Positions 16,681-23,149 of a stretch of 53,102 nucleotides of DNA are shown piece after piece. The notes below the pieces were generated by a model, which saw only the letters and a list, made by a program, of their open reading frames with translations, had not been told where the DNA came from and searched no databases. The position numbers and the translations under genes are program-made. The DNA is from Cladosporium halotolerans (taxonomy: Eukaryota), in contig NW_027191465.1 of assembly GCF_011745625.1 (NCBI RefSeq), forward strand, positions 558,001 to 611,102, read 5' to 3'. Numbering within the stretch: position 1 is the first letter of the stretch; each line of letters opens with the position of its first letter.

Positions 16681-17641
16681 GGCGGCGGTATATTACTTGG
16701 GGCTGTCTCCCGAGCGCAAGAGTGACTGGACCAGCAAGCTGTGATTTTTTCCCCGGGCGGCACTGGAGGTGAACGATACATGATCAGGAGACTTGCAGTG
16801 AAAGATATGACTGCAGTACAGAGGGCCACGCGTGAGACGACGGTATTCACTGTAAATACTTGACTGCAACATGAGACGTGAAAGACTCGGCTTTCATTCA
16901 CTTGGTTTGATCTATCCTACGATCATGGATAAGCGATATCCTACGACCTTGCACAAGCGATTTCGAGGTGTGAGGAAGTGCATACTGACACGTGGGACTA
17001 TGATGTGAGCATAGCGCTAGGCTACTCAATGGAGCCTACATCCAGCAGTCTGCACATGTGGCATTTGCGCTGAACAACCACCGTCTCGAAGCTTCTGGTG
17101 GTATTCACAAAGAGATGTAGACAGCTGTCCTCGACGCCTGCACGCAATACCAGCGTGAGTCAACCAACCGTGCAGTCACTAGGCATGTGGCAAGCGAATA
17201 GTCGGTCGCATCGCCATATGAAGGAGCAAGTGAGGTCCAGCGCGGTTTCAGGCAGCGCGCGCTAGGGCCCAGTCGGGAATGCTGCTGCTCGCGGACCCTG
17301 AAGCGCCAAGCGCTATGATGCGACGGAAAGCCGAAAGCTGGCCTTTCAGATGCTGCGAATCGCGCGGAAAGGGACAGCTGGTCCATCGCATCGGATCGCG
17401 CTGTCTGGCCTTTTCCTCCTCAAATACTTCAAGCACGAGACTGGCTGCTCTTGCTTGCCCCATCCTTCATCCATCACCACTCTCTTCCCTCTACGTCGTC
17501 GCATACCCCCCTTGACTCCGGGTCGACGACAGCCCTTCCCCTCCATCGGGCCCGCCAGGTGAAGCTAAAAAGCTCAGCGACACTGCTTGGGCGACACCAC
17601 TCCACCTACACACCACACATCACAGGCCAGCCTCCCTCACG

Positions 17642-20600
17642 ATGGCTCGGTACTCCAGAGACCAGCGCCGCCGGTCAGCGCCCTCCACCTCACCGTGGAT
17701 GACCATGTTCTACATCTGTGCCCTCGTTCTGGCGCCCATGCTCTTCATGGGCATGATCCCCTCGGCCAACGCCCAGGAGGATGCTAAGGATACTTCTGTC
17801 ACTGGACCTGGTAAGTCAATGGACATCCCGTGGGCGCTCGCTTGCGCGGAGTCGCCTCAGATCACAATGGATCGCTCCGGGAAGCACGTTTCGCTAACTT
17901 TCCTCAGTCATCGGTATTGATCTCGGAACCACCTACTCTTGCGTTGGTATCATGAAGGGCGGCAAAGTCGAAATCCTCGTCAACGACCAGGGTAACCGTA
18001 TCACTCCTTCCTGGGTTGCCTGGAACGATGAGGAGCGTCTTGTCGGTGATGCGGCGAAGAACCAGTTCGCCGCCAACCCGCACCGCACCATCTTCGACAT
18101 CAAGCGTCTCATTGGCAGGAAGTACAGCGAGAAGGACATTCAGAGAGATATCAAGCACTTCCCCTTCAAGGTTGTCGAGAAGAACGGCCAGCCTCGCGTC
18201 CGCGTCGAGGTTTCTGGGTAAGCATTTGCGGAACTGCGGAGACACGGAACACCTGCTGACATGGTCTCACAGCGCTGAGAAGACCTTCACCCCCGAGGAG
18301 GTTTCTTCCATGATCCTCGGAAAGATGAAGGAGGTCGCCGAGCAGTACCTCGGTGAGAAGGTCGTCAACGCCGTTGTCACCGTCCCCGCCTACTTCAACG
18401 ACGCCCAGCGTGCCGCCACCAAGGACGCTGGTACTATCGCCGGTCTTAATGTCATGCGTGTGGTCAACGAGCCCACCGCCGCCGCCCTCGCCTACGGTCT
18501 CGACAAGACCGACCAGGAACGCCAGATCATCGTCTACGATCTCGGTGGTGGTACCTTCGATGTCTCCATCTTGACTGTCGACCAGGGTGTCTTCGAGGTC
18601 CAGGCCACCGCCGGTGACACTCACCTCGGTGGCGAAGACTTCGACCAGCGCGTTGTTGACTATCTGACCAAGACCTACAACAAGAAACACGACACCGATA
18701 TCACCAAGAACGCGAAGACCATGTCCAAGCTGAAGCGCGAGGTCGAGAAGGCCAAGCGCACTCTGTCCAGCCAGATGAGCACCAAGATCGAGATCGAGGC
18801 CTTCCACGAGGGCAACGACCTGTCCGAGACCCTCACCCGCGCCAAGTTCGAGGAGCTCAACAACGATCTGTTCAAGAAGACCCTCAAGCCGGTTGAGCAG
18901 GTCCTGAAGGACGCCAAGCTGAAGAAGAGCGACATTGATGACATTGTTCTGGTCGGTGGTTCCACTCGTATCCCCAAGGTTCAGGCCATGTTGGAGGAGT
19001 ACTTTGGCAAGAAGGCCTCGAAGGGTATCAACCCCGATGAGGCTGTTGCCTACGGTGCTGCCGTTCAGGGTGGTGTTCTGTCCGGTGAGGAGGAGGCTAA
19101 GGAAATCGTCCTCATGGATGTGAACCCTCTGACCCTTGGTATCGAGACCACTGGCGGCGTCATGACCCACCTCATCAAGCGTGGCACCACCATCCCGACC
19201 AAGAAGAGCCAGATCTTCTCCACCGCCGCCGATAACCAGCCCGTGGTCCTGATCCAGGTCTTTGAGGGTGAGCGCACGATGACTAAGGACAAGGCAAGTA
19301 ATAAATCCCAGAACACTGTACAGTTCAATTGCTAACTTCGTCGCAGTAAGTAATATTTCCCCTTCCCCACCCGTGAAGTTCTTCCCAATGTCAGGGGATC
19401 TTGCCTCGTGCCTCTTCAGGTGAGGTAGTGCAGGCCTGCACTTGCCTACCCCAGGGCGTGGCACCTACCCGGAACGTGGCCTGCACCTGCTCACTCCAGT
19501 ACTATTGCTACTGCCTCGAGTACGCGGGCCCGGATGGGCACAAAACCCGCTCTCTCGCCTCGGTCTTTGCACTCTCCACTCTTCACTCCCCTGGCACTCC
19601 GCCCATTTCACGCCTACCAGGCAATGTCATTGACATGGCATACGACGCTCCCGACATCCAGACGCTCATTCTCCACCTCACCTGGCTCTGTCTCAATGTC
19701 TCCGACTGGATCAACCCTCGCTTCCGTGCGGTTTTTCCTACTTCTGACCATCTGGCTGCTTTGTTCCCTCAGCTCGGCATCACCTTCTGTGAAGGACTTT
19801 TCGACGTCGTCCAAGCTGCTACTGCGCCACGCATCGAGTGGTTCCTGTCTCTCCCCGCCGACATCCCACACCACGTGTGGGGCATCTATGTCCTCGTTCT
19901 TCGTAAAGGCTCCCGCTACAAGCTCTACATCGGCTCTGGCACTGGTATCAAAGATGGCGTGCGGTCCCGCATTCTACAACACGAAGGCCGCAGTGTGGAG
20001 CCTAGTCACGTCAAGCAAGCAAAGGATGATGGTTACAAGCAAGTCCACAGCTCTCTGCTCGCCTGGTGCAACCCGCCCACCGCAGCCCAAGTGCCAGCTT
20101 TCCGCACCGCTATCATTGCAATCGAGGCCGCACTCCACCTCATCTTCTGGCCTATGTATAAGCGCACCACACGATACAGCTTCCCTGATGGTCCTTGGGC
20201 TCGGAAGGAGTACCCGTGGGACGGTCTCTGCCACCACAACCCACTCACCGAAGGCGTCATCAAGGGTGTCGACGACATCGACCTCACGCCCGAGCAACTT
20301 GAGCACATGGCTAGCGTCGCTGCTGAACGGAGACGAGTCGTCAGGAATACTTGGGACCGCAAACAGCGTGCAAGCCCAAGACCTGGGTACATGGCTAAGC
20401 GTCTCGCCGTCTCAAGGAAGTACCAGCCCACAGCTACCGCCAAATACCACCAGGTCATCGCAAGCAAGGCCCACCACTGCCCCCTCTGCAATGTCACGAA
20501 GTCCTGCAAGTCCCAAATGGAACGACACTATCGAACAGAACGTCACATCAACGCCGTCGCCGATGGATGTGGTCCACTTCACTGCGTGCCGTGCAATTAT

Positions 20601-21326
20601 CATGCTAGGGACCGTTCCAACCTCCGCCGCCACTGCACGAGCAACAAACACCAAACGCTGTGCCCGCCGTCGACTTAACATTCACACCACTCACACTCAA
20701 ACCTCGCTCCTTGACATTGGCTTGTACTGATTTGGACGTCGTCCAATTTCAACGTGACCACTTGCTAACAACCTTTTCACAGCAACCTCCTCGGCAAGTT
20801 CGAGCTCTCCGGCATTCCTCCCGCGCCTCGCGGCCAGCCCCAGATCGAGGTGACTTTCGAGCTCGACGCTAACGGCATCCTCCGCGTGAGCGCCGGCGAC
20901 AAGGGCAGCGGCAAGACCGAGTCTATTACCATCACCAACGACAAGGGCCGCCTTAGCGCCGAGGAGATCGAGCGCATGGTCGAAGAGGCGGAGAAGTACG
21001 CGGACGAGGACAAGGCGACGCGCGAGCGCATCGAGTCGCGCAACGGCCTCGAGAACTACGCCTACTCGCTCAAGAACCAGCTCAACGACGACGAAGGCCT
21101 CGGCGGCAAGATCGACGAGGACGACAAGGACACCCTCCTCGAGGCCGTCAAGGAGGCCCAGGACTGGCTCGAGGAGAACGCCGCCACCGCCACCTCTGAG
21201 GACTTCGACGAGCAGAAGCAGAAGCTGAGCGACGTCGCGTACCCCATCACTTCGAAGCTGTACGAGGGCGGCGCCGGTGGCATGCCCGATGACGACGACG
21301 AGCCTTCCGGCCACGACGAGTTGTAA
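17642..21326 (+). CDS. KAR2: ER Hsp70 chaperone BiP, 680 aa; exons 17642-17810, 17908-18217, 18273-19292 and 20783-21326
   Basis: Signal peptide, [42 protein letters not shown], spliced [36 protein letters not shown], and C-terminal HDEL*. Introns at 17811-17907, 18218-18272 and 19293-20782. Confidence 0.97.
19294..19346 (+). other. Internal 53-nt GC-AG intron splitting the donor of the external intron
   Basis: Donor GCAAGT at 19294, branch GCTAAC at 19331-19336, acceptor CAG at 19344-19346. Removing it joins G19293 to TAAGT and gives the canonical donor GTAAGT. Confidence 0.85.
19635..20678 (+). CDS. Intron-encoded GIY-YIG endonuclease with two C-terminal C2H2 (matrin/JAZ-spacing) zinc fingers, 347 aa from the first in-frame ATG
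   Basis: [22 protein letters not shown]...GVRSRILQH...IAIEAAL supplies GIY, YIG, Arg, His and Glu. The two fingers are CPLC-x12-H-x5-H and CVPC-x12-H-x5-H. The frame is open from 19377. Confidence 0.88.
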   Translation: MAYDAPDIQTLILHLTWLCLNVSDWINPRFRAVFPTSDHLAALFPQLGITFCEGLFDVVQAATAPRIEWFLSLPADIPHHVWGIYVLVLRKGSRYKLYIGSGTGIKDGVRSRILQHEGRSVEPSHVKQAKDDGYKQVHSSLLAWCNPPTAAQVPAFRTAIIAIEAALHLIFWPMYKRTTRYSFPDGPWARKEYPWDGLCHHNPLTEGVIKGVDDIDLTPEQLEHMASVAAERRRVVRNTWDRKQRASPRPGYMAKRLAVSRKYQPTATAKYHQVIASKAHHCPLCNVTKSCKSQMERHYRTERHINAVADGCGPLHCVPCNYHARDRSNLRRHCTSNKHQTLCPPST

Positions 21327-23149
21327 GAGGTTCGTCATAGTCGAGGACGCTTTGACGTTGTGGTTTTTTCTTTTTGCTGGCTTGTGGATATACGCGAAAT
21401 CAAAGAATTGAAGAAAGTACACCATGTTCCTGGCCCTTTTTTTTTTTCTTAAGAGAAAGGAGTTGCCTTGTTTGCTATAGATTCTACTACACGAATACCT
21501 TGATCTTGTATCGTTCTCCACAGTTTCCTATCTTTTGATCTGCGAACTCGTAGGGCTTGCCAGGTGGTTTGCTGGGGCTACCTTGCAAGGGCTTGATGCC
21601 AGAACGAGCACCTCGCGAGTGCTCCATCTTCCTGGCCCCTGTTCACACGAAGCTGGCGGCCAGGCGTGACGAGAAAGCTCTCGCCAAGTGCACAAACTTG
21701 CTGCCAAGTCACAGCGGCAAGAGACCGCAAACTCGACTTCTGTGGCTCACGGGCAATGCTTCGAACCTCGCCAGGGCATATCGTCAGTACGTGCTATGAA
21801 GATGAAATAACAAGAGGTCGTCATCATGTCACCTGCACGTAAATGCTCACTCCGCCACGAACTCTCGATCGGGCGGTCGAACGAAGGAGGTCTGATCTAG
21901 TTTAATCTGATCTTATCGGAAGCCAAGTGCCCGAGGGCCCGAGGCATGGATACACCAAGCGGCGAGGCTATCCTAGGTACACGCTGTACTGTAAGGACAC
22001 CACGTGGCGGACACCGCGGTGGCGTCTTGGAGCCGAAGCGAAGCGAAGCAGTCCGTGTGCATGCAGATTGTCAGATTCCCATGCCTCGCCCCATCGCATT
22101 TGCTAGAATTCCCATGTGCACCGTGCTCACTGCACATCAGCACTCTGCCCTAACCCCGAGCAGAGGGAACTGCTTTGGCGGGCGCTGAAGGTTGGAAGAA
22201 GGACTGGAAGATCCGGCGCGCGCGCCCCGCGCCGAATGCCCTTCGCCTGCCATTTCCGCCTACCTTAGGTAAGCTACCTGAGGACTCGCGTCCGGAGTGT
22301 GGTAGACCTGAGCCCCGTCGGAAAAGCGTCCTCCCGCCATCTCAGAGCAAACCCATCCATCCTCCCCACCAGATCCTACACTTGATACACACCCCAGCCT
22401 CATCAGTCCCAATACACCCTCGCGCATCATCCCGCCCAAACGCTCGACTCAAACACGCACAGGCGCGTAACCGCCCGCCTCGCACAGTCCACCATCCACA
22501 TCCCAAGGAGCCGTCTCCGAACCCCCGCCGCGCACCTCCAGAAGAGACCAGAAACCCACCACGCGCAAGCATCCGCGCCCGCCTCCCCGCGGCCCCGATC
22601 CCAGACCCCAGGCACGACCCTCCCATCTCCCTCGAACTGCCCTCCCAGCCCGCAAGCCTCATCGCCCGCTGGCCCTGCGCCCTGCCCTCCTGCCGGGACT
22701 ACGGACAGCTGTGCTACCGGCGGGACGCCATGCACGCTAGAGACTGGATCCGGGCGGCGGGGGTGAGGATGTCGCTGTAGAGCACGTGGGAGAGGGGCAT
22801 TTTCCGAGAGAGATCAGAATGTGCAAGGCGATAGATAGGAGGCACGAGTCTCGCGGCGCTTGGGAGGAAAGAAGTGGGTAGAGATTTCGTAGAAGCAGAG
22901 TAGAGGTTTCATTAGGTCGTGAGGGAGGAAAATGCCAAATCGAGCGTAAAACTACCCCAACAAAGCAAACAAACACCGTGTGTGTGTCAATCTTTCAAAG
23001 GGAAATTCCCTCCTGTCACCAGACCAGCCCAGACGCCCAAAAATGCAATAAACCCTCCCCTGGAATCCTCCCAAACCCAGCAAAACCCAAACGCCTTGCT
23101 CCCGCTTCCAACCATAACGCTGTCACCAACAGAAAGCCACAAAAACAAA

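Follow-up and report, generated by a model that had tools for sequence, protein, structure and literature searches.

A long intron in the BiP gene

The stretch of DNA analysed here, which we call the window, covers 53,102 nucleotides (nt) of Cladosporium halotolerans contig NW_027191465.1 (positions 558,001 to 611,102). At 17.5–21.3 kb it codes on the + strand for an essential chaperone, a BiP/Kar2-type Hsp70 with a C-terminal HDEL, and this gene is interrupted by a 1,490-nt insert (19293–20782) holding an open reading frame (ORF) for a putative GIY-YIG nuclease. We argue below that the insert is probably a homing intron that is removed by the spliceosome. Coordinates are window positions throughout; P#### stands for database proteins, L### for metagenome loci and X# for sequencing runs. 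All BiP exons in the window are open. The insert lies between GACAA and CAACC of BiP and divides the Asn codon of TKDN|NLLGKF, the frame ending at 19292 (..ACT AAG GAC AA) and restarting at 20783 (C AAC CTC CTC GGC AAG TTC). Pfam HSP70 matches profile positions 105–445 before the insert (E 9e-166) and 448–599 after it (E 2e-42); the exon before it (18272–19292, + strand) has RNA-contig borders at 18216/18272 and 19292/20783, and the final exon (20783–21326, + strand) runs to the stop after HDEL. The remaining two BiP introns, with borders also taken from RNA contigs, measure 97 nt (17810–17906) and 55 nt (18217–18271).

The 3′ end of the insert (20764–20782, + strand) consists of a GCTAAC branch site (20764–20769), a pyrimidine run and a CAG acceptor (20780–20782), and the junction at this acceptor is the one used in RNA contigs. 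A cmscan search of 19000–21100 gave no Rfam match to group I, group II or any other intron family even at E≤10, returning three rows at chance level, so no group I or group II ribozyme was detected in that interval. By Pfam the insert holds no reverse transcriptase or transposase and only weak C2H2 fingers; it has no terminal inverted repeat or target-site duplication, just an internal 12-nt inverted repeat, and neither the insert nor its protein recurs elsewhere in the window. The initial annotation, made from the letters of the sequence, had described BiP as split inside an AA|C codon by an insert far longer than the neighbouring introns and free of transposon hallmarks. Its coordinates and anatomy were correct, the length contrast with the other two BiP introns is as described, and the searches for coding domains, repeats and a group I covariance model all agree with it.

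We then placed Logan contigs from four runs on 17400–21500, two of them RNA by record (X15, X18) and two labelled “RNA?” by guess (X7, X14). A contig with an exon-exon joint over the insert is present in all four runs. The exact window joint 19292→20783, which skips 1,490 nt with ends GG..AG, occurs in X7 (depth 459) and X18 (depth 3.3), and a joined form with a synonymous GAT instead of GAC occurs in 4/4 runs. Among the contigs of the GAT form is one of 2,287 nt from X15 that constitutes the complete spliced BiP mRNA of a close relative. Both control BiP introns are joined in X7, X14 and X15, which indicates that X7 and X14 contain RNA-derived sequence. Contigs identical to the window intron are present in X7 at a depth of about 3–11, against about 450–2,100 for the flanking exons (intron at about 0.5–1%), and this contrast is the pattern expected of a spliced intron. 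The junction that the initial annotation had anticipated is therefore present in RNA contigs, and it shows the precise removal from mRNA that a U2-type intron undergoes.

Some contigs follow the window intron for part of its length. One from X7 shares 19417–19625 with it and then diverges, continuing through about 64 other letters to 20777–20806; one from X14 shares 19374–19625 before diverging, and X14 also has a 19403→20777 joint. These contigs may come from a strain, either this one or another present alongside it, whose intron is shorter and lacks the ORF.

The 5′ border is unusual. The insert begins GGCAAGT, giving outer borders GG..AG instead of GT, and no alternative border pair yields the observed in-frame junction. 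G19293, the first base of the external donor on the + strand (the sole in-frame junction in RNA contigs being 19292|20783), is followed by a full 53-nt GC-AG intron (19294–19346, + strand; donor GCAAGT, branch TGCTAAC at 19330–19336, acceptor CAG ending at 19346) and then by TAAGTAAT. Excising 19294–19346 makes G^TAAGT, a perfect donor, and the large intron then ends GCTAAC..CAG at 20782. The insert reads naturally as a nested [D1,2] stwintron, in which an internal intron would split the G|TAAGT donor of an external one: the internal intron stands between donor nucleotides 1 and 2, and its removal restores a canonical donor. Only this nested arrangement supplies the full U2-type set of signals (GT/GC donor, CTAAC branch, AG acceptor), and it alone explains the GG start. 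Metagenome locus L001, which carries a related intron in a cytosolic-type Hsp70, has an unbroken donor at the identical exon position (GACAA|GTAAGT..CAG|CAACC) and lacks the 53-nt intron. The start of the internal intron repeats that of the external intron (19296–19309 vs 19348–19361, 86%), and this 14-nt repeat suggests local duplication as the source of the internal intron. The spliceosomal signals that the initial annotation reported at the 3′ end stand; the GG start and the nested intron that accounts for it had been overlooked.

A short intron abutting the 5′ end of a long one was seen at two unrelated sites, in the window and in metagenome locus L004. In L004 (770–826) a 49-nt intron (GTCAGT..CAG) comes directly before the one with the ORF, and just two exon bases (AG) stand between it and the GTTAGT donor of the latter. 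The leader of the L004 intron holds two direct repeats of about 120–130 nt each at about 930–1210 (..GGAAGGACCTCGATATC..CCATTGGGGGTTTCCA..). In the window, the remainder of the external donor (TAAGTAAT..) and a 288-nt non-coding leader occupy 19347–19634 on the + strand, and this leader has no recognised feature. L001 has a leader of 272 nt in the equivalent place, with little sequence similarity to that of the window.

The window and L001 introns share an inverted repeat of 12–14 nt with the core ATGTCA(A/G)GG. In the window its 5′ arm (CCAATGTCAGGG, 19385–19396, + strand) pairs with a 3′ arm (CCTTGACATTGG, 20709–20720, + strand) lying 62 nt short of the 3′ splice site; in L001 the arms are at about 136–149 and 1421–1434. 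In both introns the repeat lies about 40–55 nt past the large-intron donor and ends 60–62 nt before the acceptor, with one mismatch that would form a G.U pair in RNA. It could form an RNA stem bringing the splice sites of the long intron together. We evaluated this by folding the first against the last 150 nt of each intron (duplexfold, 100 shuffles): the intron-end duplex was significant for L001 only (z -4.1, 0/100) and did not exceed shuffles in the window (z -0.7), L003, L004 or L007. Folding each intron end as a single strand likewise gave nothing beyond what shuffled sequences gave.

The encoded protein and its family

The ORF is intact and lies on the same strand as BiP, running from the ATG at 19635 to the TAA at 20676–20678 (19635–20678, + strand). 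Its 347 amino acids (aa) comprise a helical N-terminus, a GIY-YIG-like domain, a long helical linker and two C2H2 fingers, and its homologues share its start Met. In the closest database protein, P0001 (Cladosporium halotolerans hypothetical protein WHR41_05357), the gene model has run the greater part of the ORF together with the final exon of BiP; this chimera is 98% identical over its ORF part. The predicted catalytic domain spans aa 81–202 (19875–20240, + strand), with G83-I84-Y85, Y98-I99-G100, R112, E164 and N202, and the two fingers, of zf-met/JAZ/U1-like type, span aa 280–304 and 315–340 (20472–20654, + strand). In an alignment of 23 sequences, W82, Y85 (GIY), Y98, G100 (YIG), R112 and E164 are invariant and N202 nearly so; the finger ligands C282, C285, H298 and H304 are invariant too. 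The R112, E164 and N202 columns are also retained in a second clade (alignment A4). A conserved Arg after YIG, followed by a Glu and an Asn, is typical of GIY-YIG nucleases, with roles known from I-TevI, and we infer that R112, E164 and N202 are equivalent to these catalytic residues.

An AlphaFold2 model built from the 23-sequence alignment had a mean predicted local distance difference test score of 86.6 and consists of strands 82–91 and 94–102, two helices, strand 135–145 and a long helix. The GIY and YIG motifs fall on the first two, adjacent strands, at the spacing of about 10–13 residues expected of the superfamily, and the fold has its three-stranded sheet flanked by helices. Comparing the predicted model with 48,161 PDB representatives returned the I-TevI catalytic domain (1ln0_A) as the best structural match, over model residues 81–202, with a root-mean-square deviation of 2.2 over 88/92 residues and Z 7.3, a value in the “middling” range of the comparison tool. 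T4 EndoII, PD-T4-3, UvrC, R.Eco29kI and HIGLE, all GIY-YIG proteins, are also among the top 14 matches, and the weaker matches of this comparison include several spliceosomal finger proteins. In BFVD about half of the best 50 rows are named GIY-YIG, homing or intron-associated endonucleases, these matches being weak (best E 2.5e-3). Pfam assigns zf-C2H2_jaz to 22/23 family members and zf-met to 21/23, weakly for the window ORF itself, and a PDB profile search matches CTCF and other fingers. Together these results support the ORF as a predicted GIY-YIG-type nuclease with an I-TevI-like fold and a presumed cutting activity. An intact, same-strand GIY-YIG ORF had been claimed before; intactness and strand hold, and the family assignment comes from motifs and predicted fold, below the Pfam threshold.

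Two further properties of the coding sequence were recorded. GC content at third codon positions is 0.66 in the ORF (19635–20675) vs 0.82 in BiP, with overall GC contents of 0.58 and 0.59, so that its codon usage looks like that of a weakly expressed gene and not like that of its BiP host. The number of C2H2 fingers after the nuclease domain differs among members, from two to at least four finger stretches, which would look like a modular, retargetable DNA-binding part.

Relatives of the protein are numerous. A word-indexed search found 27 of like length at 36–98% identity, and an exhaustive profile search over 1.84 billion representatives returned 550 cluster representatives at E≤1e-30, 1,407 at E≤1e-10 and 6,718 at E≤1e-3, the last figure being inflated by zinc fingers. 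Those with a named source belong to the Dothideomycetes (Cladosporium, Elsinoe, Hortaea, Aureobasidium, Parastagonospora, Meristemomyces), Sordariomycetes (Diaporthe, Monosporascus), Leotiomycetes (Pseudogymnoascus, Lachnellula, Venustampulla) and Eurotiomycetes (Blastomyces), and together the relatives make up a large family in Pezizomycotina. A scan of a prokaryote contig collection gave 3 pattern matches, with no relative among them. Among the best 150 representatives, 53 of at least 411 aa were scanned; 2/53 carry HSP70, and most others carry extra C2H2 fingers. In one long protein, P0099 (1,515 aa, JGI), the family profile matches 10 separate stretches, which may be tandem copies or fragments.

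The ORF's own Atlas cluster (score 0.98, 150 members, Ascomycota) bears the automatic name “carbamoyl-phosphate synthase cpa2 family”, which is consistent with gene models in which the ORF is fused to carbamoyl-phosphate synthase. The next Atlas clusters (0.81–0.88) contain GIY-YIG + zf-met/JAZ proteins of Nucleocytoviricota and phages, a lead on the origin of the family. Automatic annotation was observed to split host genes or to fuse the ORF in frame to Hsp70, CPA2, URA2 or clathrin exons. Public models affected in this way include P0001, P0021, P0029, P0080, P0155, P0180 and P0187–P0191, and the outcome is that chimeras enter the databases as “heat shock” or “carbamoyl-phosphate synthase” proteins and that clusters receive names that mislead.

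Host genes and recurrent insertion sites

Genomic contexts could be read at 8 metagenome loci, confirmed among 591 pattern matches, and in gene models where the ORF has been joined to exons of its host. The host is identifiable in 5/8 loci (4 Hsp70, 1 aconitase), and the ORF is always on the sense strand. The TKDN|NLLGKF site is occupied in BiP in the window and in the “glucose-regulated” BiP model of Elsinoe australis (P0021), and in cytosolic-type Hsp70 in L001 and in Hortaea werneckii (P0029). Five nucleotides upstream of this site, the BiP of L007, on a 214-kb contig, holds an 835-nt intron (ACCAAG|GTATGT..CACAG|GACAAC). Two further Hsp70 sites are occupied elsewhere: KKD| in L003 (GT..AG, 1.9 kb), P0028 and Aureobasidium pullulans P0080, and PTIKK| in L004 and in ssb1 of Diaporthe eres (P0155). 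Beyond Hsp70, the ORF of L008 stops about 90 nt before a CTAAC..CAG acceptor followed by an aconitase exon. The MVN|(Y)NPET site is occupied in CPA2 of Monosporascus (P0188) and in URA2 of Meristemomyces (P0189) and Blastomyces (P0191), and the ORF is also present in CPA2 of Lachnellula (P0187) and in the clathrin heavy chain gene of Venustampulla (P0190). In Aureobasidium melanogenum (P0180) the host is a divergent Hsp70 whose junction is not placeable. Four sites or genes were each found in at least two independent sources. Wherever the surroundings are readable, the ORFs lie in introns of highly conserved genes at recurring sites and outside known transposons, which is what the initial annotation had expected of homologues.

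The sites themselves suggest movement. The same nucleotide position is used in the paralogues BiP and cytosolic Hsp70, and in CPA2 and URA2, which diverged long before these fungi. We built a maximum-likelihood tree of 78 rows, comprising the window, those of P0002–P0028 and P0030–P0069 passing at least 200 profile positions, the loci, and four partial rows of known context that were added back (P0029, P0080, L007, L008); P0001 was omitted as a duplicate of the window. All four ORFs of the TKDN|NLLGKF site fall in one clade of 25/78 rows with 100% support in the Shimodaira–Hasegawa-like approximate likelihood-ratio test. Within it, a subclade with support 92 unites the window (BiP) with L001 and P0029 (both cytosolic), and the Elsinoe BiP ORF lies outside, so that BiP and cytosolic hosts are interspersed within one ORF clade. 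A tree label “S1” considered for P0180 and P0158 was dropped, given the unplaceable junction in the P0180 host and the position of both outside the 100% clade. The window ORF is 63% identical to that of L001, 69% to P0029 and 53% to P0021. Around the junction, the exons of the window and L001 match without a difference over the last 8 nt on the 5′ side and the first 25 nt on the 3′ side, so one enzyme could recognise both BiP and cytosolic Hsp70, and repair between the two would be possible.

Occupancy and integrity also vary. In P0080 and P0028 the TKDN|NLLGKF site is empty and the KKD| site occupied, and P0029 shows the opposite. L007 retains an ORF remnant from which the whole GIY-YIG part is missing and in which a finger is broken. 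At the KKD| site, the intron of L004 is 50 nt long and has no ORF; it shares its exact position and phase (AAG AAR G|..|AC) with the 1.9-kb ORF-bearing intron of L003. An endonuclease ORF within an intron of a conserved gene, reuse of the site across taxa and a sporadic distribution are traits of homing elements, and all are found here.

Proposed homing, its alternatives and its relation to known systems

We consider it probable that a nuclear gene of a cellular organism here carries a spliceosomal homing intron, with cleavage and biased inheritance as the parts that we infer. The initial annotation had proposed such an element, and the RNA joint, the lack of an Rfam match and the homologues in introns at recurrent sites speak for its proposal. 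The insert would be part of the BiP pre-mRNA, from which the spliceosome of the host would cut it out, leaving BiP intact. Removal would probably take two nested steps, 19294–19346 first, joining G19293 to TAAGT, and then the large intron at CAG 20782; the final junction is observed, and the order of the steps is deduced from it. The 347-aa protein would be built like I-TevI of phage T4, with a GIY-YIG domain, a long linker and a DNA-binding module made of two C2H2 fingers. It would recognise the unbroken exon sequence around ..AAGGACAA^CAACCTCCTCGGCAAGTTCGAGCTC.. and presumably cut nearby, whereupon repair from an intron-bearing copy would put intron and ORF into the cut site, either in transient diploidy or ectopically between paralogues. 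Insertion would split the recognition sequence, leaving an occupied site protected. The TKDN|NLLGKF stretch is nearly identical in Hsp70 paralogues, so the element could also have moved between BiP and cytosolic Hsp70. Across Pezizomycotina, sister lineages of the protein family are settled at further fixed positions, in the genes for Hsp70s, aconitase, CPA2/URA2 and clathrin heavy chain, and after fixation the ORF could decay, leaving an ordinary-looking intron.

Several observations weigh against this account. The RNA evidence consists of assembled contigs and not reads, X7 being one of the runs called RNA by guess; the exact joint 19292→20783 is flagged “between: not known”, and the joined form could in principle derive from an intron-less allele of a relative. 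No 19293→19347 joint, which would mark removal of the internal intron alone, is listed among the RNA contigs. On the protein side, PF01541 (GIY-YIG) has no match in the window ORF at E≤0.1 and matches 1/23 members (E 0.064). PDB sequence and profile searches returned no GIY-YIG proteins, only fingers or, for the catalytic region, a chance match, and Foldseek against PDB gave nothing at E≤1e-3, with UvrC GIY-YIG domains at ranks 37–50. The middling Z of the I-TevI match belongs here too, and two fingers by themselves specify few base pairs. A route to translation is not obvious for an ORF that starts some 340 nt into a spliceosomal intron and follows an in-frame stop (19333–19335), and intron RNA in X7 is just about 0.5–1% of exon depth. 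Among the loci, L002, L005 and L006 show no host gene (0/22 translated flank segments match Pfam at E≤0.01), and L006 is frameshifted, with about 1.4 kb upstream holding no Pfam-recognisable exon. The readable contexts cover few of the 550 representatives, and fused models are biased to Pfam-known, same-strand hosts. The short KKD| intron of L004 would fit an ORF invading a pre-existing intron equally well. No cleavage, homing event or within-species presence/absence polymorphism was seen, and homing is read from the sequences.

The possibility that only the ORF is mobile, and that it invades or lands by old host introns as a safe harbour while creating no new introns, is unlikely in our judgement. 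The ORF-less L004 intron at the L003 position would suit it, as would the short, ordinary-looking introns that abut the large introns of the window and L004, and the X7/X14 contigs that follow the window intron to 19625 and then diverge, perhaps as an ORF-less version. ORF-less forms are equally expected from ORF loss following fixation, however, and old introns are hard to reconcile with the window and L001, whose intron borders coincide exactly although the paralogues that hold them separated far earlier than an ORF identity of 63% suggests. A transposon-type introner with loose target preference, using the GIY-YIG protein as its transposase, is very improbable. Such an element could account for the size of the family (550 representatives at E≤1e-30), for the 3/8 loci that show no conserved host gene and for the short inverted repeat inside both ends of the window and L001 introns. 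That repeat, though, lies 40–60 nt inside the borders with mismatches that are G.U-compatible, terminal inverted repeats and a target-site duplication are absent, and the window holds the element just once; repeated occupation of one nucleotide position in different taxa and paralogues, with Hsp70 in 4/5 identifiable hosts, is unlike loose targeting.

The nuclease motifs, conserved family-wide, point to selection for cutting, and this bears on a further proposal that we rate as highly improbable: that the ORF now serves the host or the intron, as a splicing helper or domesticated nuclease under ordinary selection, and is no longer mobile. It draws on the zf-met/JAZ/U1-like fingers, which Pfam describes as double-stranded RNA binders, on the several spliceosomal finger proteins among the weak structural matches, and on an ORF that is intact with all conserved columns present. 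The ORF is nevertheless dispensable for splicing, judging by L007, which lost the catalytic part and kept its GT..AG borders intact, and by the ORF-less L004 intron. Finally, the non-canonical GG start, together with the public model P0001 that splits BiP and joins the ORF to the last exon, might be taken to mean that the window BiP is a disrupted pseudogene or an assembly artefact. This is extremely improbable given that all exons are open to HDEL, that RNA contigs give the exact in-frame junction, that intron contigs identical to the window occur in run X7 at about 1% of exon depth, and that the architecture recurs in independent contigs.

As a spliceosomal homing intron, the insert would combine features of several known systems. 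I-TevI sits in the self-splicing group I intron of the phage T4 td gene and targets a conserved stretch of an essential gene. The fungal protein resembles it in having a GIY-YIG domain, a long linker and a small DNA-binding module and in being intron-borne; it differs in that its intron is removed by the spliceosome, its DNA-binding module is unlike that of I-TevI, and searches detected no resemblance between the two in sequence. Intein endonucleases, such as VDE/PI-SceI in yeast VMA1, are homing elements of the nucleus. So are rDNA group I introns with His-Cys box endonucleases, according to the accessible text on them (PMC9548176). Like the fungal element, both are nuclear, occupy conserved sites of essential genes and are removed at the RNA or protein level, but they do so by ribozyme or protein self-splicing and with other nuclease families. 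We know of none in a spliceosomal intron of a protein-coding gene.

The nested donor has precedents as well. [D1,2] stwintrons of filamentous fungi, as presented in the available parts of three papers, have an internal U2-type intron between donor G1 and T2 and need two consecutive splicing reactions (PMC12403724, PMC9024468, PMC5639578). The stwintrons described in those parts are short and non-coding, whereas the external intron of the window is 1.4 kb long with an ORF, and its internal intron has a GC donor. The window's internal intron differs further in looking like a partial duplication of the external 5′ end. Introners share with the fungal element that they are mobile sequences becoming spliceosomal introns and able to create new positions; introners are multi-copy, mostly non-autonomous and spread over many unrelated genes, whereas the fungal family has one coding element per conserved site (PMC9860276).

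The closest parallel is viral. The available text of a November 2025 report in Nat Microbiol on mirusvirus “shintrons” describes 334 HNH, GIY-YIG, VSR-like and PD-(D/E)XK genes inside spliceosomal introns, with a strong preference for particular conserved genes, and homing proposed from genomics alone (PMC12768974). It also states that equivalents are apparently lacking in eukaryote genomes (PMC12768974). The fungal element has the same spliceosomal borders, nested endonuclease gene and target-gene preference as far as that text describes them. Shintrons as characterised there reside in viral genomes of marine protists, whereas the elements considered here occupy nuclear housekeeping genes of filamentous ascomycetes (PMC12768974); the fungal endonuclease moreover has C2H2 fingers, paralogues share its site, and the window copy has a nested donor, which sets it apart from the shintrons of the accessible text. 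The fungal elements are not mirusvirus-resident, their hosts being BiP, Hsp70, aconitase, CPA2/URA2 and clathrin genes of ascomycetes, with L007 on a 214-kb contig and other members in database records that name a fungus as their source. Against the accessible part of that report, the element is a cellular version of a kind proposed so far for mirusviruses only. The earlier belief that the arrangement was undescribed holds for cellular nuclear genes and falls for viruses, where shintrons are already on record in the text available (PMC12768974). In a literature search that did not cover subscription-only papers, we found no account of endonuclease genes within spliceosomal introns of nuclear genes, either in fungi or in other cellular organisms. 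Whether filamentous ascomycetes carry a large family of spliceosomal homing introns that is active to this day, and that would be the first such family in a cellular genome, is in our estimate an evenly balanced question.

To our knowledge, homing endonucleases have been thought to depend on self-splicing introns or inteins. If our interpretation is true, homing reaches ordinary RNA polymerase II genes of a cellular organism, and the family would show concretely how spliceosomal introns can be gained at particular conserved positions and come to be common to paralogues. It would act in nature as a gene drive of the nucleus and would at the same time add spliceosomal introns in a sequence-specific manner, and its proteins would be natural, compact, finger-guided GIY-YIG nucleases with defined targets. 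The family also explains the recurrent mis-annotation of essential genes in these fungi, with ORFs fused to host exons and hosts split. In filamentous ascomycetes, I-TevI-like endonucleases would then drive whole introns into fixed sites of essential nuclear genes, jump between paralogues and, after decay, leave short introns behind.

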